DNA of 64,000 nt from Oscillospiraceae bacterium (GCA_015064635.1 SVRV01000005.1:32858-96857); one strand, 5' to 3'; positions 3,167-13,194 are shown, counted from the first letter of the stretch. The notes: generated from the sequence alone by a model not told the origin. Numbers and translations: made by a program.

Positions 3167-3754
3167 TTACTTGAAATATCTCTTAAGAAGTCCTTCAAGA
3201 CCACGTCCATGACGAGCTTCGTCTCTTGCCATCTCATGAACTGTATCGTGGATAGCGTCGAGTCCGTTCTTCTTAGCGCAGGAAGCGAGGTCGAACTTGC
3301 CCTGTGTTGCACCATACTCACAGTCAACTCTCCACTTGAGGTTGTCCTTTGTGGTAGCCTTCATGTTGGGCTCAAGGTCCTCTCCGAGGAGTTCTGCAAA
3401 CTTAGCTGCGTGCTCTGCTTCTTCAAAAGCTGCCTTTTCCCAGTAAAGACCGATTTCGGGATATCCTTCTCTATGTGCTATTCTTGCCATGCAGAGATAC
3501 ATACCAACTTCAGCGCACTCGCCGTTGAAATTAGCCATGAGCTGCTCGAAAATGTACTTCTTATCTTCTTCTGAAATGTCAGGATTATTCTTTACTGTCT
3601 TGCCATATACGCCATACTCGTGCTCAGCCGCAAGAGCTGCGCCTTCTTCCATTACCTTAAACTTGCTTGCGGGCACCTTGCATACAGGGCACTTATCGGG
3701 AGCAGCATCTCCCTCGTGAACATAACCGCATACTGAACATACAAACTTTGCCAT
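3167..3754 (-). CDS. rbr: Reverse rubrerythrin (N-terminal rubredoxin domain plus ferritin-like diiron domain)
   Basis: CSVCGYV...CPVCKVP rubredoxin motif at the N-terminus, followed by the EGECAE...EEAEHA...EARH diiron ligand pattern. Confidence 0.85.
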
Positions 3755-3780
3755 AACCTTTTTTCTCCTTTAAATAAATA

Positions 3781-4224
3781 TTATTTTAAATTTTCAATGA
3801 TATCGAGGGATGACACCTCGGGGTCTGTGATACTTCTCACTGTAACGGATTTTAACATATCTGTAAGCGCTTCGTTTATAGCGGCAAATGCTATGTGCAT
3901 TTTACATCCCATCTTGTTAGTTCCGTTTCGTGAGCAGGGGTGGTCATCTGAGAGACATTTTGAAATGCTCACTTCCCCTTCGATTGCTTCAATTATTTTG
4001 CATACCGTCAGCTTTTCGGGATTACTCACTAACATGTAACCCCCTACAGCACCCTGCTGTGAGTCTACTATGCCTTTTGCTTTGAGTTTTCTCAATACCT
4101 TGAGCGCTATTGCTTTACTTATAGCAACCTTGCCTGCTATACTCTCCGCATCAAGCATCCCGTCCGTTTCATCAAGAACACAGCATATACGGATTGCATA
4201 ATCTGATTCCTGTGTTACTTTCAT
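3781..4224 (-). CDS. Rrf2-family transcriptional regulator (three-Cys, probable Fe-S sensing)
   Basis: MKVTQESDYAIRI... winged HTH, 147 aa, with a C-x6-C-x10-C cluster (CLSDDHPCSRNGTNKMGC). Confidence 0.85.
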   Translation of the reverse strand: MKVTQESDYAIRICCVLDETDGMLDAESIAGKVAISKAIALKVLRKLKAKGIVDSQQGAVGGYMLVSNPEKLTVCKIIEAIEGEVSISKCLSDDHPCSRNGTNKMGCKMHIAFAAINEALTDMLKSVTVRSITDPEVSSLDIIENLK

Positions 4225-4247
4225 GGACTTTCTCCATTTCTTTTATC

Positions 4248-4266
4248 GTGTACCTTTTTGGTACAC
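4248..4266. promoter_or_regulatory. 7-5-7 inverted repeat GTGTACC-TTTTT-GGTACAC, candidate Rrf2 operator
   Basis: Perfect palindrome immediately downstream of the predicted -10 of the rrf2-rbr promoter and 24 nt upstream of the rrf2 ATG. Confidence 0.45.
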
Positions 4267-4270
4267 TTTA

Positions 4271-4298
4271 ATTATACACAAAAAAAGGTATTTGTCAA
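4271..4298 (-). promoter_or_regulatory. Sigma-A type promoter for rrf2-rubrerythrin
   Basis: Minus strand: TTGACA (4298-4293), 16-nt spacer, TATAAT (4276-4271). Confidence 0.55.
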
Positions 4299-4307
4299 TA
4301 CCTTTTT
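4280..4307 (-). terminator. Rho-independent terminator after the GT2-LtaS gene
   Basis: Minus strand: AAGGTAT-TGACAA-ATACCTT followed by a T7 run. It overlaps the -35 of the rrf2 promoter. Confidence 0.7.
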
Positions 4308-7300
4308 TTAATCTTTTTTTATTTTTTTAAAATAATCGTATTTCAGCGTAAGATCATTCCTTGTTATAAGGGAATTTACGACCTCGTTGTGAGCTTCGAT
4401 GTACGCTTTATCTACCTCACTATCCACAGCTACGGCGCCAAGCTCTACATAATTTTCTCCGTCATACCACGAATAGTCACTGAAAAACGCATACCCTTTG
4501 TATGAGGGATCAAAGATGTCGTTTCCAATATAATATCCGTCCTGATACTCGATTCCGAAAAGATTGAGCAGGGTTGGAAGAATATCAAGTTGCGAATTTG
4601 TTTTTTCTACAACCTCACCCTGAATATCCTTTGACCAAATTAGGAAAGGAGTATGATTTATCAAATTATTGTGTGTCGTCTTATGCTTATCAAGAATTGA
4701 TTTATCATTGAGAGTATACAGATAATGGTCGGCAAAAGCAACTATTACGGTATTATCCGAAAGTCCGTTATCCTCAAGTGCCTGCATAAGAAGTCCGATC
4801 ATATCATCGGTCTCGGTAGCATAAAGACGAGCTACATCCTCTTCCGTGTACTCCTCCGGGTTAACCTCTTCGCCGTAAAGCTTTTGAGACAAAGCCTCAC
4901 CTGTTTTGCTATCCATTGAAAAAGGGGTATGAGGAGTATAGGTAATGATGTAATTCAAAAACGGCTTGTCCTGAAGAAACATATTGCTGTAAAATGTTTC
5001 ATTATTTATAAGCTCCGTATCCAGATACAAGGCACCGTCATTATATTTGCAGTCGTCTATCAGGCTGTAATAGTTATCGTATCCCCAATTTTTATAATTC
5101 AGCTCTCTCATATAATACTCTCCCGTATTCATATGGAAAGCATTTGCGACGTATCCACGTTCCTTAAAAAGCTTGGGAAGTGTTTTGGGGAAAGAATTAT
5201 TATTGAAGAGATATGCGTTTTTTGAATAAGATACAGGCGTTAAAAATCCGGTAGAAACCGCAAATTCAGAATTGAAGGTAGAGCCTCCGCCGTTGTAATA
5301 GGAATAATGGTCATCAAACACAAACGAATTCTCTGTCAATGCAGTAAAATTCGGCATATCGTTTTCGTTAAACAACCATGAATCTATTCCTTCAAGCTGA
5401 AGAATTATAAGGTTCTTTCCTTCAAAGATTCCTGTATAATCATTTTTTTCGTGATTGGTCAACTCCGAATAGGAATTCTCCAAGAACTCTGCTTCGTGTG
5501 CATCTATTTCATTATCTTCGTTTGTCAAGGTCTTCCATGCGTCTCTTGCAGTGTATTCGAAAAGTCCGCATATTTTGATACTCTTGTTTGCATCGCCGAA
5601 GGATTCATAAACGTTTCGGGGATTGCGCCAGGTATCCCACTCCAATGCGCTGTTCGCACTTCCGTAAAGCACAGGAGTCGCAAAGCGCAACAACATGAAA
5701 GAGGAAATGGAAACGAGAATAAGTTTCCAATTAGTTTTTTTACTTCTTGGGAATTTCACCACAGCGACAATACCCAGCACCAGGGCAATACCGAATAGCA
5801 CATATGAATACAAGGAAGAATTCTTTACCGTATCCCAAATATATGCCGCTCCTTCTTCCACAGAACCCAAAAGTTTGAAATTAAAGAAGAAACCTGTATA
5901 CGGATAATAAACAAGGTGCGTTGTGTAAACAGTGAAAAAAAGAGCAAAGAATACTCCGTAAAGTATCTGTCCGATTCTACCCTTTAAAAACGTAGAAATG
6001 CACACAACAAAGGCTATCCACAAGGCAGAAAACAGAAGGCTTGGAATTACTGCCTTCCACTGGAAATAGTTTATTCCCAGTGACATAATACGAATAGTCA
6101 CATCCATAAAAACAAAAGGCAGCACCAAAAATAAAATCTTGGTTGTTATTTTTTTATTATTTTTTTTTACCGTTTCTTTTTTTGAGGATTTTTCTATATT
6201 CTCAATCGTAATCTTACTCGTGTGAGGAATAGGCTTCCATTCGACTTTTTTAAACAGAGCAACATATGTTGTCCATCTTCCTATTATATCAAAAACAGGC
6301 CAGGTAATCGAATATAAAATCTTTTTACGAAGAGGCATTTTTATAATGCGGTTTCTTTCGGTAAAAAGAACGTACGCCGCCATAAACATATGCTTAATAT
6401 GGTAATTAATACGACTGAGCAAATTCCACAACACAACCACTCCAACAGTAGTGACCATAGCGGTAAAGCCCGGTGTCATATTTATGGGATTTGTTCCAAA
6501 AATCCACGAGAGAGCTCTTGTAAGAATGTTCTTTGCAGGGTCGAGTAAAACCCAATCGGTAATGCCATTTGTGTAGCTGAAGCAAGCTCCGATGATAATG
6601 GGAACAATAAGCCAAAGGAATACCTTTACAACAGCAGACGGGAAACAATGCACCAAAACGTCATAGGACGCAAATCTCTGTCTTATACCCTCAACAAAAC
6701 GCTTCTTCGTCATAGGTTCTTTTTTGGTTTTGTCCTTGTAGCAATTGCCTACAAATATATTCTTGAAAAGATATGGACCTATCTCAACAAAGGCAAGAAG
6801 GTGTCCCTTTGACCAGCGCAGTCTCTGTCGGAGTGCCACCTTAAGGCTTGTTGGCTGTTCATCGTAGAACATTGCGGCATCGCAATAGGATATGGGATAT
6901 CCGTGTGCTACCGCATCGGCTGTAAATGCGCGGTCTTCCGTAAGGGAGGTATAATTCCAACCGTCCTTCACAAGCTCGTTTGCGAATAAGAAGCCTGTTC
7001 CTTGAATGTTTGTAGCAAGTCGTAATACTGATCTTGCTCTGTGTCTTATTCTTATTGTACGAAGCCAATGTATTGCATAGCTGAAAGCTATCCAATTTTC
7101 GTCAAAGTTCTTGGTGTTTCGGTATGAGGTGATTATCTTTTCTCCCTCGTCAAACGCCTCGTTCATCCTTGATACGTAATCGGGGCTTAGAAGGTTGTCC
7201 GCATCAAACACAAAATATCCTTCATATGCTTCGATTCCGTAATCCTTTTTTATGTTTTCAAACAAGAACTGAAGGGCAAATCCCTTTGTTCTGCGCTCGC

Positions 7301-7646
7301 TATCAAATCTTTCGTAGCAAACAGCACCCTTTTCTCTGACTATTTCAGCCGTTTTATCGGTGCAGTTGTCGGCTACTACAAATACATCTATATATTCACT
7401 CGGATAGTCCTGATTCTTTATACTGTCAAGCAGGTTTCCTATAACCTTTTCTTCATTTCGTGCCGCTATTACTATTGCGTATTTATGTAATTTGTCGGTG
7501 GGCTTAAACTTTCTTGTGATGAAAAAACCCATCACTGTATATATTACAAAGTGTGCTGTCAATTTACCAACTATGAATAAAATAATTCCTCTGACCACGG
7601 CAGAAGCTTCATAAATAGAAGCAATCGCCTCAATCACAGTTTCCAA
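4308..7646 (-). CDS. Fusion protein: processive family-2 glycosyltransferase (synthase-type) plus a polytopic membrane region plus an LtaS/sulfatase-like phosphotransferase domain
   Basis: 1112 aa. N-terminal half: VADN (D93), FDAD (148-150), TED (236-238) and QRLRW (274-278; nt 6813-6827). A Lys-rich linker lies around aa 483-503, followed by about 5 TM helices. C-terminal half: LQLEGIDSW...GGGSTFNSEF (Thr790, nt 5277-5279)...FADHY, typical of the LtaS/alkaline-phosphatase superfamily. Confidence 0.8.
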   Translation of the reverse strand: METVIEAIASIYEASAVVRGIILFIVGKLTAHFVIYTVMGFFITRKFKPTDKLHKYAIVIAARNEEKVIGNLLDSIKNQDYPSEYIDVFVVADNCTDKTAEIVREKGAVCYERFDSERRTKGFALQFLFENIKKDYGIEAYEGYFVFDADNLLSPDYVSRMNEAFDEGEKIITSYRNTKNFDENWIAFSYAIHWLRTIRIRHRARSVLRLATNIQGTGFLFANELVKDGWNYTSLTEDRAFTADAVAHGYPISYCDAAMFYDEQPTSLKVALRQRLRWSKGHLLAFVEIGPYLFKNIFVGNCYKDKTKKEPMTKKRFVEGIRQRFASYDVLVHCFPSAVVKVFLWLIVPIIIGACFSYTNGITDWVLLDPAKNILTRALSWIFGTNPINMTPGFTAMVTTVGVVVLWNLLSRINYHIKHMFMAAYVLFTERNRIIKMPLRKKILYSITWPVFDIIGRWTTYVALFKKVEWKPIPHTSKITIENIEKSSKKETVKKNNKKITTKILFLVLPFVFMDVTIRIMSLGINYFQWKAVIPSLLFSALWIAFVVCISTFLKGRIGQILYGVFFALFFTVYTTHLVYYPYTGFFFNFKLLGSVEEGAAYIWDTVKNSSLYSYVLFGIALVLGIVAVVKFPRSKKTNWKLILVSISSFMLLRFATPVLYGSANSALEWDTWRNPRNVYESFGDANKSIKICGLFEYTARDAWKTLTNEDNEIDAHEAEFLENSYSELTNHEKNDYTGIFEGKNLIILQLEGIDSWLFNENDMPNFTALTENSFVFDDHYSYYNGGGSTFNSEFAVSTGFLTPVSYSKNAYLFNNNSFPKTLPKLFKERGYVANAFHMNTGEYYMRELNYKNWGYDNYYSLIDDCKYNDGALYLDTELINNETFYSNMFLQDKPFLNYIITYTPHTPFSMDSKTGEALSQKLYGEEVNPEEYTEEDVARLYATETDDMIGLLMQALEDNGLSDNTVIVAFADHYLYTLNDKSILDKHKTTHNNLINHTPFLIWSKDIQGEVVEKTNSQLDILPTLLNLFGIEYQDGYYIGNDIFDPSYKGYAFFSDYSWYDGENYVELGAVAVDSEVDKAYIEAHNEVVNSLITRNDLTLKYDYFKKIKKD

Positions 7647-7701
7647 ATTCGCACCTCCTCATATAAAATCTATTTCATAAATAAACATTTTTTGACTACT
7701 T

Positions 7702-7730
7702 ATAATAACATGTAAAAAACATTTTGTCAA
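7702..7730 (-). promoter_or_regulatory. Candidate sigma-A promoter for the GT2-LtaS gene
   Basis: Minus strand: TTGACA (7730-7725), 17 nt, TATTAT (7707-7702). Confidence 0.45.
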
Positions 7731-7800: not shown

Positions 7801-7831
7801 CAAAAAATGAGCTGTCATACGAGACAGCTCA
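7801..7831 (-). terminator. Rho-independent terminator after the GH39-like gene
   Basis: 9-bp stem TGAGCTGTC/GACAGCTCA with a 6-nt loop, then a T-run on the minus strand. Confidence 0.75.
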
Positions 7832-7843
7832 CTTGATGGTTTA

Positions 7844-9190
7844 TTATTCAAATTCAATAAAGGCAATCGACTGACAGGGACCGAGGTTCACCTTAAATTC
7901 TTTTTCCGGCGTTTTGTCAGCAAAAAGTGTAGGGAAACAAGGAGATGTATCCGAATGCATTTTATAAAATTTCATGGAATCAAATTTTTCGACCCCCTTG
8001 AAATTGATAGTAATTTCTGTGTTAATATGTTCCTTCTCCATATTACATATCATGACACCCGCCTTCTTACCATTTGTTGCAGCGCAGACAGCTACGGGTG
8101 ATTTCTCGTCAAATGCACCGCTTTCAACCTCTGTCCCAAGCTTATAAAGCTTACCAAACATTTCAAACGGGAAGAAATCGGCAAGGGGTGCTTTTTCCAT
8201 GCTGACCAGACAGTTGAACAACGTTGTTCTTCTCAGGTCATAATACATCATCATATCAACAAGGCTCTTCTGTCCTGCAATAAGTGCTATGCCGGTCTCT
8301 GCCGACACCTGAAGACTATGACGCTCATAATGTCCCTTGAAATATCCGTTATGCCATTCGTCAAGTATTATTTCAGCCTCCTTGAATCCCATAGAGTCAA
8401 GCCAAGCGCGAGTACCGTTGTTATATTCATAAAGGTCTCTCGGGTCATTCAGGTACCTATGATACGAAAAGAAGTCAAGGGGTGCCTTTGTCTTTTCGTC
8501 GGTTATATATTTAAAGAAAGCATATGTAAAGTCACGACAATACTCATGGCGTTCGGTAAGCTCTTCCACAAAAAGATAATTGGTATTTGTCGCAGCAAAT
8601 CCACCTATCTTTATTTTATCACCAAAGCATTTTTTCAAATGATTTGCAGTCACGCTGTAAAGCTCAAAGTACTGTTCCCACGTACCCGTCCACATATTGT
8701 GGTTTTTTCCTTCGGGTTCATTCCAGATTTCCCAATATTCTATACCGTAATAAAAACCATTCGCCCAGCCTTCGTTGTAATGACGAATTATATGCTCACA
8801 TACTCTTGCCCATTTACCCGCATCCTTTGGAGGATGGATATAAAGAGGATTCGGAGTATGGTCAATAGATTCACCAAGTCGGTAAAAAGGCTTGCCGCCC
8901 GCTTCTATAATGCCTTTAAGGCAAATATCCGTTGCCCAGAAATTATAGGATTCCGGAAGATTTTCATCGGCATCAAAATTCGGGAATATACAGTGTATAT
9001 CAACAAGCTGGTCGCAACCATAAGGACCGTCTGTATCATGCAGACGGGAGTACGGGATTGCCATCTGTCTGTAATAGTTAGATATATCCCAGCCGCCCAT
9101 CATGCCCTGAACCGGCTGATTGTTAACTGCGTGAATAGGTTTTATTTTTCCTTTTTTAATGTCAAAATTGATATTAATGTCGTATGTCAT
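7844..9190 (-). CDS. Clan GH-A glycoside hydrolase, GH39-like
   Basis: 448 aa, no signal peptide. IHAVNNQP, SRLHD and YWEIWNEPEG (acid/base Glu context) resemble GH39 beta-xylosidase/iduronidase-type enzymes. The family assignment is by motif only. Confidence 0.55.
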   Translation of the reverse strand: MTYDININFDIKKGKIKPIHAVNNQPVQGMMGGWDISNYYRQMAIPYSRLHDTDGPYGCDQLVDIHCIFPNFDADENLPESYNFWATDICLKGIIEAGGKPFYRLGESIDHTPNPLYIHPPKDAGKWARVCEHIIRHYNEGWANGFYYGIEYWEIWNEPEGKNHNMWTGTWEQYFELYSVTANHLKKCFGDKIKIGGFAATNTNYLFVEELTERHEYCRDFTYAFFKYITDEKTKAPLDFFSYHRYLNDPRDLYEYNNGTRAWLDSMGFKEAEIILDEWHNGYFKGHYERHSLQVSAETGIALIAGQKSLVDMMMYYDLRRTTLFNCLVSMEKAPLADFFPFEMFGKLYKLGTEVESGAFDEKSPVAVCAATNGKKAGVMICNMEKEHINTEITINFKGVEKFDSMKFYKMHSDTSPCFPTLFADKTPEKEFKVNLGPCQSIAFIEFE

Positions 9191-9695: not shown

Positions 9696-10472
9696 TTAAA
9701 GCACTATTGTATCACCGCAGTAAAGATAATTCAGCTTCGTCATATACGATTTCATAAATCTGTATTGCTCCTCACCCGTACAATGGCAAGTATAAAAATG
9801 AGTGTCAAACGAATTTAAATACATTGCATATTTTTCAAGATTTTCATCAAGAGGAAGTTTTGAATAATGAAAGCCTCCGACAATAGCATCGGGATGAAAC
9901 CATTCGGCAATATCCATAATTCCCTTGTGCGAGCATCCGCTGATAAGCACACGATTCCCCTTCTCCTCAATGAGCAAATATTGCTCGTGGCGAAAATCAT
10001 CGGGTATGTATTCTCCCTGTTCTTTCAATGTCAGACCAAAGCTTCCAAGGTCATGATTCTTCTTTTTGCCGTTGCAAGAGTAGAGAGTTAACCCTTTTGC
10101 TATTTCGCATATATCATCTGTATACACCAGTCTATCGCATTTTTCAAGAGAAACATCGAGACCGATATACTTCTCCGTACCGTTATAGTGAGGTTCAAAG
10201 GCATATTTGCTGATATAAACAGGTGCTTTTTCATTAATCCGTAGGAAGCTTTTCAAGCCTCCTCCATGGTCATAGTGACCGTGGGAAAGTACTGCCACGT
10301 CCACGCCCGAGAGGTCAATCCCCATTACTTTGGCATTATCGGCAAAAGCATCGGTTTGCCCCATATCAAAAAGTAGAGTTTGATTTTCGGTTTCAATATA
10401 GAGCGACAATCCGTGTTCGGCTTTTATACCGTCTTTATTTGATATATTTTCTACTAAAGCTGTTATTTTCAT
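9696..10472 (-). CDS. MBL-fold metallo-hydrolase
   Basis: 258 aa with the LSHGHYDHGGG (HxHxDH) motif. Confidence 0.8.
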   Translation of the reverse strand: MKITALVENISNKDGIKAEHGLSLYIETENQTLLFDMGQTDAFADNAKVMGIDLSGVDVAVLSHGHYDHGGGLKSFLRINEKAPVYISKYAFEPHYNGTEKYIGLDVSLEKCDRLVYTDDICEIAKGLTLYSCNGKKKNHDLGSFGLTLKEQGEYIPDDFRHEQYLLIEEKGNRVLISGCSHKGIMDIAEWFHPDAIVGGFHYSKLPLDENLEKYAMYLNSFDTHFYTCHCTGEEQYRFMKSYMTKLNYLYCGDTIVL

Positions 10473-10522
10473 ATTATTACAAGTTTAGCCGAAGAGAGTC
10501 TCCCCTCTTCGGCTATTGATTA

Positions 10523-11656
10523 TTAGTCTATAACCTCTACGGTCTTATTGTAGAAGGACTTGAGTGCGGCTGTAGCCATTGTATGAGAAAGAACTGTTTC
10601 TTCGGGTGTAAAGAGACCGAAGGGTACTTCAACACCTGAATATTCAAGCATAAACGCCGCAATCTGCTGCTGAATTGCATCTGTAAAGCCAAACTCAAAG
10701 ATAGGTCCTGTTATTGTGGGTATCATAGGCTTATATCCGATGATAATTCTGTTCCATGACTGCTCCTTGCCCCATGAAGATGTGTAATGGAAAGCATTTG
10801 CATCGTCACTTGTGAACTTAGCACTGCACTCTGTGCCATAGATCTCAAAGAACCAACGGTTTGTTGAACCGGGAGCCATTCTCTTTGTCTCAAATGTCAT
10901 GGGAATTTCATCACCGTCTGCATTGAGAGTTGTAGCGAAGATAGTACAGTTGTCAAATGTATCACAAACTGCCATACCTCCCTTGCCGTCGGGACGCTCC
11001 TTGACGATGTTGCTGAAGTGCGCTCTTACTGTCTTGGGCTTAAAGCCGAGACGGAAAGGAACGTGCTGAGTGTGGATGCCGAGGTCTCCAAGACAACCGT
11101 ATTCACCGTTGAACTTAACCATTCTCTTCCAGTTGATAGGCTTGTTTACATCCATATCACTGCAATGATTGAATCCGCAATGAATTTCAAGAATCTTACC
11201 GAACTTGCCTTCCTTGTACCAGTTTATCATAGTCTGCATTGCGGGATAATAAGGAAATTCGCTGCAGCAACGTACAAATGTGTTGGGATTCTCCTTGATA
11301 GCTTCCATAATATGAGCATTCGCTTCCTTGTCTATACCAAAGGGCTTTTCGCCAAGGAGAGCTTTGCCGCTCTTGATAATATCAATGTAGAACTGTTCAT
11401 GGAGATTATGAGGAACTGCACAATAAATTGCATCAATATCGTCCTTGTCAAGGAGCTCCTTATAGTCTGCAACCGAATACTTTATTTCAGGAAAATTCTT
11501 ATGGAACCATTCCATTTCCTTGGGAACAACCGAGCAAATACCGACGATTTCGGGACGGGGTACATCGTCTGTAAGATGACACCAACGAGCTGCGGCTGAA
11601 GCAAATTCTCTTGCCATAAGTCCGCATCCGATGAGACCGAATCTAACTGTTTTCAT
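10523..11656 (-). CDS. Gfo/Idh/MocA-family NAD(P)-dependent oxidoreductase
   Basis: MKTVRFGLIGCGLMAREF Rossmann N-terminus and an EKP motif (LLGEKPF). Start set at ATG 11656 (AAAGGA RBS). The longer track ORF reads into an intergenic repeat. Confidence 0.85.
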   Translation of the reverse strand: MKTVRFGLIGCGLMAREFASAAARWCHLTDDVPRPEIVGICSVVPKEMEWFHKNFPEIKYSVADYKELLDKDDIDAIYCAVPHNLHEQFYIDIIKSGKALLGEKPFGIDKEANAHIMEAIKENPNTFVRCCSEFPYYPAMQTMINWYKEGKFGKILEIHCGFNHCSDMDVNKPINWKRMVKFNGEYGCLGDLGIHTQHVPFRLGFKPKTVRAHFSNIVKERPDGKGGMAVCDTFDNCTIFATTLNADGDEIPMTFETKRMAPGSTNRWFFEIYGTECSAKFTSDDANAFHYTSSWGKEQSWNRIIIGYKPMIPTITGPIFEFGFTDAIQQQIAAFMLEYSGVEVPFGLFTPEETVLSHTMATAALKSFYNKTVEVID

Positions 11657-11674
11657 AATTATAATCCTTTCTGA

Positions 11675-11742
11675 CAGGGCTCTGCCCTGAAACTCGCATA
11701 GAAACTTTTTGTAAAATATTTCTATGAACTTCAAAAACTTTT
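11675..11742 (+). repeat. Copy 1 of a ~68-nt two-hairpin intergenic repeat
   Basis: CAGGGCTCTGCCCTGAAACTCGCATAGAAACTTTTTGTAAAATATTTCTATGAACTTCAAAAACTTT. It matches 33991-34057 in the same orientation, about 59 of 68 positions by eye. Confidence 0.7.
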
Positions 11743-11778
11743 ATGTTTATTTTTTCATCCGAATTTCTTGTGATTATA

Positions 11779-11811
11779 TAAAAAGCAGTTGCAGAAAGCT
11801 CTGCAACTGCC
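11779..11811 (-). terminator. Rho-independent terminator after the aminotransferase gene
   Basis: Minus strand: GCAGTTGCAG-AGCTTT-CTGCAACTGC followed by TTTTTA. Confidence 0.75.
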
Positions 11812-11823
11812 TTAAGTCATAGA

Positions 11824-13194
11824 TTAATATCCGAAGTGCTTTTCAGTTTCAGCAACTGCTTCTTCGATGATATCAAGACCCTTGAGAGCTGCTTCGTCAT
11901 CGAGGATCATAGGAGGAGACATACGGAGGATGTGTCCTGAGGGAACCCAAGCAAGACCCTTTTCGAATGCCTTCTGATAAATCATAGTACCTGCTTCAGC
12001 GAAAGGCTCCTTGGTATTTCTGTCCTTAACAACTTCGATAGCCTGGAGACAACCGATAGCACGAACATCACCGATGATGGGATGTCTGTCCATCATTTCC
12101 TTCATTCTCTTAAGCATGATTTCGCCAAGGTGAGCCGAACGCTCATTGAGGTTTTCTTCCTCGATAACCTTGATTGACTCAAGAGCTGCTGCACAAGCCA
12201 TGGGGTTTCCGCCGTAGCTTGAAGAAGCTGAAATCTTTTCAATAGCGGGAGCAAGCTTGTCGGAAACTGCAAGAGCTGTTACGGGGAATCCGTTACCGAA
12301 GCCCTTACCGAGTGTTGTGATGTCCGCTGTAACGTTCCAGTGATCCATAGCAAGGTACTTACCTGTTCTTGCCATACAGTTAAGAACTTCGTCAGCGAAG
12401 AGAAGGATATCTCTCTTGTCGCAAAGAGCACGAAGTGCGGGAAGGAAGTCTGCGGGAGGAATGATTGAACCGCCCCAACCCTGAACGGGTTCAAGGACGA
12501 TAGCTGCAACGTTCTTACCGCCGGAAGCGCAAGCGTTGTCAAGCATACCTTCGATCATGTGAATGTAAGGTGTTGAATCCTTCCAAGCCTCCTCGGGTGT
12601 TCTGCCGAAGAAGTCACGGTAGGGATTGGGTCTGGGAACAAGCATGAAACCGGGAGCTCTCATGTGTGTGTCGGGGCCTACTACCGCAAGAGAGTTAGCA
12701 CCGTAGGTCTTACCGTGGAAATCTCTGAAGAAAGAGATAAATTCCTGCTTGCCTGTTGCTGCTCTTGCACAACGGAGACCTGCTTCAACAGCTGTCGTAC
12801 CTGAATCGTAGAACTGGAATCCTGCGAAACGTCCGCCGGTGATCTCATGAAGCTTTTCAACAAGTTCCATCTTTACCTTTGTAGTAAAGTCGTGGCAGTT
12901 CATAAGATTCTTTGCGTGATGTGCAACTGCTTCGCTGATCTTGGGATGGCAGTGACCGAGACCTGTTACGTAGATACCTGATGAGAAGTCAAGGTATGTA
13001 TTACCGTCAACGTCTGTAAGTGTGTAGCCAAAGCCCTTATCAAATGTTACGGGGAAAAGTTTAACCTGGCTGGAATAGCCCTTCATGTACTTAGCGCATC
13101 TCTCATGGTACTCAACTGACTTAGGACCGGGAACAGTCTCTGTTACAATGTGAGGAACCTGAGTAAGATCCATTGATGCCCAATTTTTGCTCAT
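11824..13194 (-). CDS. Class-III (omega) PLP-dependent aminotransferase
   Basis: 456 aa. Contains SGTTAVEAGLR, LFADEV and TLGKGFGNG (Schiff-base Lys context), typical of the GABA/ornithine-aminotransferase family. Confidence 0.85.
   Translation of the reverse strand: MSKNWASMDLTQVPHIVTETVPGPKSVEYHERCAKYMKGYSSQVKLFPVTFDKGFGYTLTDVDGNTYLDFSSGIYVTGLGHCHPKISEAVAHHAKNLMNCHDFTTKVKMELVEKLHEITGGRFAGFQFYDSGTTAVEAGLRCARAATGKQEFISFFRDFHGKTYGANSLAVVGPDTHMRAPGFMLVPRPNPYRDFFGRTPEEAWKDSTPYIHMIEGMLDNACASGGKNVAAIVLEPVQGWGGSIIPPADFLPALRALCDKRDILLFADEVLNCMARTGKYLAMDHWNVTADITTLGKGFGNGFPVTALAVSDKLAPAIEKISASSSYGGNPMACAAALESIKVIEEENLNERSAHLGEIMLKRMKEMMDRHPIIGDVRAIGCLQAIEVVKDRNTKEPFAEAGTMIYQKAFEKGLAWVPSGHILRMSPPMILDDEAALKGLDIIEEAVAETEKHFGY

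Follow-up and report, generated by a model that had tools for sequence, protein, structure and literature searches.

Within a stretch of DNA of 64,000 nucleotides (nt) from an Oscillospiraceae bacterium (GCA_015064635.1 SVRV01000005.1:32858-96857; the whole stretch is referred to here as the window), a single gene on the minus strand at positions 4308 to 7646 encodes a protein in which a glycosyltransferase of family 2 (GT2), with the motifs of membrane-embedded polymer synthases, is joined to a transferase resembling the lipoteichoic acid (LTA) synthase LtaS. We suggest, with about even confidence, that the protein is a self-contained accessory module in which a glycan is produced and exported by the GT2 half and receives, on the outer side of the membrane, glycerol-phosphate (GroP) that the LtaS-like half takes from phosphatidylglycerol (PG). 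The pairing of the two families in three different gene arrangements, together with their repeated fusion, speaks for a single machine in which both enzymes act on one substrate stream.

The 1112 codons of the open reading frame (ORF) are uninterrupted by stops; translation begins at a TTG codon (7646-7644) placed 7 nt 3' of the ribosome-binding site GAGGAGG (7654-7660, minus strand) and ends at TAA (4310-4308), so that the single 1112-residue polypeptide described in an earlier note on this DNA was recovered intact. Its N-terminal half begins with a transmembrane (TM) helix (residues ~20-43, nt 7518-7589), followed by TRKFKPTDKLHK in a positive-inside arrangement, and continues as a cytoplasmic GT-A catalytic domain (residues 55-285, nt 6792-7484) that was recognized both by Pfam and by its motifs. 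Three overlapping Pfam GT2 models cover residues 55 to 349, among them Glyco_tranf_2_3 (residues 55-281; E value, 1e-23) and Glyco_trans_2_3 (residues 147-349). D93 (in ADNCTD), DAD at 148-150, TED at 236-238, and QRLRW at 274-278 (nt 6813-6827) are all located where the earlier note had placed them, and D93, D148, D150, T236, E237, D238, Q274, R275, R277, and W278 are invariant in 29 GT2 relatives of 60 to 86% identity. Hydropathy and AlphaFold2 helices define two further TM helices (residues 337-360 and 394-429, nt 6360-6638) with a short external loop between them, after which a cytoplasmic K/R-rich tail (nt 6207-6359) comprises an amphipathic helix (residues 439-465) and the motif F..V.WKPIPH (residues 465-475); this motif lies immediately before the junction and is likewise invariant in the 29 relatives.

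Against PDB sequences, a profile of the GT2 family matched nothing beyond short N-terminal stretches or single motifs, and a fold search was needed for this half. Foldseek comparison of the full-length AlphaFold2 model (mean pLDDT, 85.7; pTM, 0.55) with the PDB returned the hyaluronan synthases of Chlorella virus and Xenopus (Xl-HAS1) with E values of 4e-13 to 1e-12 over 489 to 547 aligned columns (TMt, 0.45 to 0.54), and BcsA was also among the matches (E value, 1e-11). When the GT2 half was modeled by itself the result was poor (pLDDT, 63.5), leaving its TM-scores unusable and only the ranking of its matches of value; the ranking was the same, with polyprenyl-phosphate transferases of the GtrB type far behind (E value, ~5e-3). 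The scores against curated NCBIfam synthase families were all far below the respective cutoffs: 41 bits against 422 for PgaC/IcaA (TIGR03937), 22 against 550 for NodC (TIGR04242), 19 against 699 for CelA (TIGR03030), and 98.9 bits over residues 49 to 283 against 700 for EpsU (NF041865). By motifs and modeled fold the GT2 half appears to belong to the class of membrane-embedded synthases, and it may be processive.

The C-terminal half comprises a five-TM domain (residues 498-661, nt 5664-6155) with an external helix (residues 590-608 in the AlphaFold2 model) between TM3 and TM4, and an alkaline-phosphatase/sulfatase-fold domain (residues 662-1112, nt 4311-5663) that carries E752, T790, H838, Y845, R847, H906, and D973/H974 and is predicted to be extracytoplasmic; this order, five N-terminal TM helices and then the extracytoplasmic fold, is that of the LtaS family. 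Pfam Sulfatase matches residues 762 to 1032 (E value, 6e-32), complementing the GT2 models on the N-terminal half in the domain scan that the earlier note had proposed. The nucleophile motif GGGSTFNSEF (residues 786-795; T790 at nt 5277-5279) and the metal-site motif FADHY (residues 971-975; D973/H974 codons at nt 4725-4730) are intact at the positions previously given for them. In phmmer alignments with solved LtaS and LtaP ectodomains from Staphylococcus aureus, Bacillus subtilis, and Listeria monocytogenes (E values, 6e-21 to 4e-16), the nucleophile and Mn2+ ligands of S. aureus LtaS are all matched (E255 by E752, T300 by T790, and D475/H476 by D973/H974), as are the GroP-binding residues H347 (H838), R356 (R847), and H416 (H906); W354 is replaced by Tyr845, a Tyr that is invariant in the family. 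Across 50 relatives of the LtaS-like half, with identities as low as 27%, these LtaS-equivalent residues do not vary, and the loss of catalytic residues that the earlier note had contemplated has thus occurred in neither half.

Foldseek placed LtaS and LtaP ectodomains at TMt values of 0.71 to 0.75 (0.75 for LtaS) and matched full-length PbgA/YejM over ~670 columns. The NCBIfam LtaS model (NF053595) gave 119.9 bits over residues 545 to 1078 against an equivalog cutoff of 970, and OpgB (NF009027) gave 19 bits against 572 over residues 946 to 1036 only; no family of the BcsG or EptA type was among the Pfam and NCBIfam matches of the fusion, and GacH structures were not among the sequence matches of its LtaS-like half. 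Since every score is far below its cutoff, the protein falls within both superfamilies but within none of the curated equivalogs that were tested. The alignment with LtaS and LtaP, the retention of the GroP-binding residues, and the lack of a BcsG- or EptA-type match make GroP, rather than phosphoethanolamine (pEtN), the most likely headgroup to be transferred.

Topology was predicted from hydropathy, from counts of K/R and D/E residues, and from AlphaFold2 helices. The segment from residue 430 to residue 497 is rich in K and R, with 21 such residues between positions 412 and 503, the ectodomain is acidic (74 D+E against 33 K+R), and the helix that carries QRLRW is a long interface helix. The charge distribution and the helix count together predict that the GT2 domain and the linker face inward and the LtaS-like ectodomain outward, the orientation that LtaS topology requires; the proposal in the earlier note of about five TM helices leading to an extracytoplasmic domain is supported on the same grounds. 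The Lys-rich linker that it had located at residues ~483-503 was reproduced, and its variable part, which forms the fusion junction (residues 481-497, nt 6156-6206), is modeled with a pLDDT below 50 at residues 490 to 497. In relatives in which the two halves are separate proteins, it is at the position of this linker that the GT2 gene stops and the LtaS-like gene starts.

Such split relatives are the rule. A word-indexed search returned hundreds of stand-alone GT2 proteins of ~500 residues (60 to 70% identical to the N-terminal half) and hundreds of stand-alone LtaS-like proteins of ~630 residues (53 to 61% identical to the C-terminal half), in addition to five other fused proteins (P0003-P0007; 1113 to 1139 residues, 55 to 73% identity). 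Each of three randomly taken stand-alone LtaS-like genes was directly preceded by a GT2 gene of this kind, either overlapping it or 28 nt away, and when one genome was taken per species the two families proved to be neighbors in nearly all of the 80 resulting loci. In Clostridia (37 loci on the tree) the pair is co-directional, with overlaps of 14 to 89 nt or gaps of 4 to 73 nt when measured to the first in-frame start codon; in metagenome-assembled genomes (MAGs) labeled Bacilli it is convergent in 22 loci; and in other Bacilli loci a co-directional pair encloses a conserved ORF of 61 to 64 residues with a single TM helix (MKEYIDQIFYEGLG...). Record titles assign the pair to Roseburia, Agathobacter, Faecalimonas, Coprococcus, Oscillospiraceae, and MAGs of the Erysipelotrichaceae type, and a single partner protein accounts for 264 indexed blocks of the collection. 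In databases the proteins bear only such generic names as "glycosyltransferase" and "sulfatase-like hydrolase/transferase." The earlier note held that these activities reside in separate proteins in known systems; the separate form of the very same family is in fact widespread, and the fused form is its rare variant, found in 3 of 51 co-directional species-level loci (L010, L013, and L015). Fusion frequency was taken from these loci, and the 50%-identity representative library contains no full-length fusion of the close family.

A maximum-likelihood tree of the concatenated halves, with SH-aLRT support, requires at least three changes to account for the fused state. The window protein, P0003, L010, and L015 form a fused clade (support, 95), the P0006 fusion lies outside it at a fork that is drawn open, and the fused L013 is sister to the split L047 (support, 100). 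Elsewhere, a GT2 of 57% identity is joined to a different LtaS-family branch with nucleophile and metal motifs intact (P0249; 1253 residues). The sequences thus point to at least three or four independent fusions of the two families.

Because the genes overlap or abut in most relatives, a one-base error could in principle join them, and a lost stop, a frameshift, or a decaying pseudogene might then masquerade as a fusion. We regard this explanation as scarcely credible: two sources list the identical 1112-residue protein, from several contigs, the fused homologues are well diverged and come from independent assemblies, their linkers differ in sequence and in length (20 to 35 residues), and each homologue retains both motif sets intact. 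The fusion claimed from the window sequence is therefore genuine, and the architecture search recommended at that time yielded fused homologues alongside the widespread split pair.

Several further features of the pair were noted in the course of this survey. The small ORF of the Bacilli loci (L051, L053, L054, L055, L059, L060, L065-L068, and L076; for example, L054:5485-5673) begins at, or 1 nt past, the stop codon of the GT2 gene, ahead of the gene for the LtaS-like protein; its TM helix is C-terminal, it matched no Pfam family, and in position and size alone it recalls IcaD/PgaD. Several split loci (L018, L019, L020, L052, L063, and L085) have two GT2 genes beside one LtaS-like gene. Convergent pairs that cluster with those of Bacilli occur in MAGs labeled Muribaculaceae or Paludibacteraceae, of the Bacteroidota (L064, L069, L072, L075, and L077), which implies either misbinning or interphylum transfer; the LtaS-like gene of L072 is in two alignment pieces and may contain a frameshift. 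In the representative library, this GT2 family is also fused to CofD (P0325; 1007 residues) and to DUF218 (P0342; 631 residues), and an LtaS-like module is fused to Acyl_transf_3 (P0329; 990 residues).

Physical linkage could serve only co-expression or co-localization of two enzymes that act on different substrates, the LtaS-like half perhaps being a regulatory or lipid-binding partner in the manner of PbgA/YejM. The structural match to full-length PbgA/YejM, an LtaS-fold protein that is not a transferase, is compatible with such an arrangement, as is the presence in the same genome of a stand-alone GT2 paralogue on another contig with no LtaS-like neighbor (P0122; 497 residues, C5:3008-4498, minus strand) that is 87% identical to the N-terminal half in both protein and DNA and reaches 98% DNA identity over some 100-nt stretches. 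We nevertheless think it unlikely that the substrates differ, as the full LtaS catalytic set is invariant across the family, and an adjacency that outlasts changes in orientation and a fusion that recurs with two LtaS branches would be hard to explain without a shared pathway. A second stand-alone GT2 is present in all three other fusion genomes that could be checked (L023 with L015, L026 with L010, and L046 with P0006). P0122 itself is flanked by an ORF of at least 1126 residues with SLH-like sequence and by a convergent 980-residue open frame, and a third GT2 of the Glyco_tranf_2_3 type lies in a 492-residue open frame of the same genome (C50:59783-60343, minus strand).

Under the mechanism that we favor, the N-terminal GT2 would build a glycan from a cytoplasmic nucleotide-sugar and pass it through the membrane, a task in which the stand-alone GT2 paralogue of fusion-bearing genomes may help. 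On the outer side, Thr790 would attack PG at a Mn2+ site whose ligands are E752, D973, and H974, releasing diacylglycerol and forming a Thr-glycerol-phosphate intermediate, from which sn-glycerol-1-phosphate would be moved, singly or to give a short chain, onto the glycan as it emerges. In this scheme the LtaS-like module would use the product of the GT2 as acceptor and PG as donor; these roles, like the processivity, the export, and the sugar of the GT2 step, are inferred. By analogy, cosynthetic glycerol-phosphorylation of a synthase-made glycan is the simplest mechanism: BcsA holds three copies of the five-TM, alkaline-phosphatase-fold BcsG beside the nascent polymer (PMC11379886), OpgB and OpgE put phospholipid headgroups on osmoregulated periplasmic glucans (OPGs) (PMC3818809), and streptococcal rhamnan receives GroP from GacH (bioRxiv 10.1101/337519).

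The gene for this module is accessory and not part of the core envelope machinery. Close relatives are present in only 2 of 15 congeners, in both as a split adjacent pair, and no other fusion was seen within 51 genomes of the family. In two same-genus genomes the site is empty: the GH39 gene that lies upstream of the fusion gene in the window (7844-9190, minus strand) is represented by an orthologue of 87 to 88% identity directly beside orthologues of the downstream Rrf2 (79 to 83%) and rubrerythrin (97 to 98%) genes, across a spacer of ~115 to 185 nt that contains the same AT-rich hairpin and promoter as are found 3' of the fusion gene. From these empty sites, the fusion gene, its own promoter, and a terminator serving GH39 can be seen to constitute a ~3.5-kb single-gene insertion/deletion polymorphism. 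Four fused loci of other genomes lie in four unrelated contexts with no conserved neighbors. Other LtaS-family paralogues, two or three in number, are present in all 16 genomes of the genus, and these genus-wide LtaS paralogues, three genes other than the fusion, are the core set. In the window genome they are found at C45:~9968-12085, C36:~108361-110370 (~11.5 kb past the end of the window), and C23:~122132-124225; they are ~28% identical to the C-terminal half of the fusion where an alignment is detectable. All three are multi-TM proteins of ~670 to 705 residues with intact GxGT nucleophile motifs; the types to which they belong are kept throughout the genus, and their matches to the LtaS model are poor or absent.

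The regulatory elements that border the gene, all on the minus strand, bear out one part of a previous proposal, which gave it both a promoter and a terminator of its own. A promoter-like site (TTGACA-17 nt-TATTAT with a TG extension; 7702-7730) agrees with the consensus at 11 of 12 positions, a consensus match only, and upstream of it a terminator-like hairpin of 12 pairs followed by a T-run (7805-7834) ends the GH39 gene and belongs to the DNA that is missing at the empty sites. The downstream terminator was not upheld as the gene's own: the AT-rich hairpin with a T-run directly 3' of the stop codon (~4280-4307) is a resident element that also contains the -35 hexamer of the Rrf2 promoter and, being kept at the empty sites, did not arrive with the fusion gene. 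No riboswitch or other RNA element was found upstream of the fusion gene, the sole match being below threshold and due to chance. The Rrf2-rubrerythrin unit (3167-4298, minus strand) has a perfect TTGACA-16-TATAAT promoter whose -35 hexamer sits in the loop of the trailing hairpin, a 7-5-7 palindrome (4248-4266) lies just downstream, and the whole promoter/hairpin/palindrome element is kept at the empty sites of both congeners. GH39 genes adjoin a GT2/LtaS-like unit in two genomes besides that of the window (L006:7996-10636 and G033:C5:11405-13928), and two of the three genomes have the pair followed by two GH39 genes. This adjacency may be fortuitous, given the many GH39 paralogues in the genus and the presence of the window GH39 gene at the empty site; the gene was considered as a PslG-like polymer hydrolase and, for this locus, rejected on these two counts and because its product has no signal peptide or TM helix.

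A number of considerations weigh against cosynthetic decoration as we propose it. Single transfer and polymerization cannot be told apart by sequence. Clear TM helices in the GT2 module number only three, accompanied by amphipathic helices, which is fewer than in BcsA or hyaluronan synthase, and from this predicted count a closed translocation channel in one GT2 protomer is not evident. At a pTM of 0.55, the relative placement and packing of the two modules in the model are not reliable. The literature that we searched, on fusions or operons of LtaS and GT2, on complex LTA biosynthesis, and on clostridial synthases, yielded nothing on this family and no description of the pair or its architecture; the Romboutsia synthase RiGT2 (PMC10374906) was considered and set aside as an unrelated BcsA-like PilZ enzyme. 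Two observations lean toward a teichoic-acid-like polymerase. Of the four LtaS-family proteins in its genome, the fusion module comes closest to the LtaS model, with 120 bits; two of the others score 49 and 32, and the third gives no match. In addition, the GT-C protein YfhO is fused to an LtaS-like module of 41% identity to that of the window (P0248 of the representative library; 1467 residues), YfhO enzymes being known to glycosylate poly-GroP LTA.

These two observations are also among those that would be expected if the fusion constituted an accessory LTA-like pathway, in which the GT2 would make, and perhaps flip, a glycolipid or a short lipid-linked glycan primer, thereby taking the place of YpfP/UgtP and LtaA, and the C-terminal half, as a genuine LTA synthase, would polymerize GroP from PG. 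This pathway and the decoration of a nascent glycan correspond to the two alternatives offered in the earlier note. The nearest solved relatives of that half are polymerizing LtaS enzymes and the primase LtaP, and the genome has no MGDG_synth domain of the UgtP/YpfP type. We regard such a pathway as possible but doubtful. Neither the empty sites nor 13 of 15 congeners have the module, while the other three paralogues are conserved across the genus; the QxxRW motif and the fold similar to those of hyaluronan synthase and BcsA are features of polymer synthases, whereas known glycolipid-anchor synthases are members of GT28 or GT4; the score of 120 bits is far under the 970 required of an LtaS equivalog; and the genus has no DltD. 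Taken together, the absence of a UgtP-type synthase and of DltD does not decide between the readings.

A more speculative route would have the GT2 glycosylate the headgroup of PG, or build a short glycan on it, and present it on the outer leaflet, and the LtaS-type module transfer or polymerize the resulting glycosyl-GroP, giving a product similar to a type II or type III LTA. Coupling between the modules would be explained if the GT2 made the donor, which fits both the pairing and the repeated fusion; the pair occurs in MAGs labeled Bacilli, one of them labeled Erysipelotrichaceae, and glycosyl-GroP LTAs have been described for Clostridium innocuum, while the GT2 synthase of pneumococcal type 3 capsule has been reported to initiate on PG. 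This route is purely inferential, as no residue-level or comparative evidence singles out glycosyl-PG, and we consider it decidedly improbable: the residues of the GroP pocket are conserved as in LtaS enzymes that use plain PG, and we know of no LtaS that uses a glycosylated donor. There is also an outside chance that the pair is unrecognized machinery for a new class of GroP-containing lipoglycan or complex (type II/III-like) LTA in dominant gut Firmicutes, produced via glycosyl-PG, and in that event the TM domain of the LtaS-like module may be part of the translocation path.

New here are the fusion itself, its recurrent emergence, and the identification of the empty site. Repeated independent fusion is about the strongest evidence that two enzymes work as one machine that can be had from sequence alone, and very many gut Clostridia and Bacilli carry the pair. 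If cosynthetic glycerol-phosphorylation, or for that matter an LTA-like product, is borne out, then the GroP-bearing surface glycan or polymer would be a candidate for a molecule that abundant commensals present to the host, possibly as an immune ligand, phage receptor, or modifier of surface charge, and the principle of coupling a synthase to a phospholipid-headgroup transferase would extend from Proteobacteria, with their pEtN-cellulose and OPGs, to Gram-positive-type envelopes. A single polypeptide of fixed stoichiometry that needs no partner gene at the same locus is also convenient for expression, biochemistry, and cryo-electron microscopy.

The fusion shares features with several known systems. 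Its N-terminal half resembles the small synthases of the class I hyaluronan synthase, PgaC-IcaA, and NodC type in length (~420 to 500 residues for the class), in its D, DxD, (T)ED, and QxxRW motifs, and in its layout of an N-terminal TM helix, a cytoplasmic GT-A domain, and C-terminal TM and interface helices, and its best fold matches are in this group; it has no deacetylase or porin partner. The C-terminal half shares with LtaS and LtaP five N-terminal TM helices and an extracellular sulfatase fold, gives its best sequence and fold matches to them, and retains all of their catalytic, Mn2+, and GroP-binding residues apart from the Trp-to-Tyr exchange, but it is only ~22% identical to them; moreover, canonical LtaS is not paired or fused with a QxxRW GT2, and the fusion gene, unlike that of LtaS, is accessory in its genus. 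OpgH-OpgB and GacH/SccH offer precedents for the decoration of a glycan with PG-derived GroP by an enzyme of the LtaS superfamily (PMC3818809; bioRxiv 10.1101/337519), and in OpgH-OpgB a membrane GT2 synthesizes that glycan, as we propose for the fusion. Those enzymes are separate proteins whose genes are often unlinked, and the acceptor of GacH comes from an ABC-transporter-dependent pathway and not from a synthase.

The closest parallel is BcsA-BcsG of Escherichia coli, in which a membrane GT2 likewise works with a five-TM headgroup transferase of alkaline-phosphatase fold acting outside the membrane. BcsA and BcsG are physically associated (PMC11379886), and PDB entries 9fmv and 9b8v are among the fold matches of the fusion; interface helices separate TM3 from TM4 in BcsG, and the AlphaFold2 model of the fusion has its helix at residues 590 to 608 in the same place. 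The differences are equally plain. BcsG has a Ser nucleophile and transfers pEtN, whereas the fusion is of the LtaS type with a Thr nucleophile and GroP-binding residues; the N-terminal domain of BcsA recruits three BcsG molecules, whereas the two halves of the fusion are covalently held at 1:1; the GT2 half, at ~480 residues with three clear TM helices, is much smaller than BcsA; and the fusion has no PilZ domain, BcsB, or outer-membrane parts, its host being a Firmicute of the Gram-positive type. By analogy, therefore, the fusion appears to follow the logic of BcsA-BcsG and OpgH-OpgB, executed with an LtaS-type transferase, in a Gram-positive-type envelope, and within a single chain.

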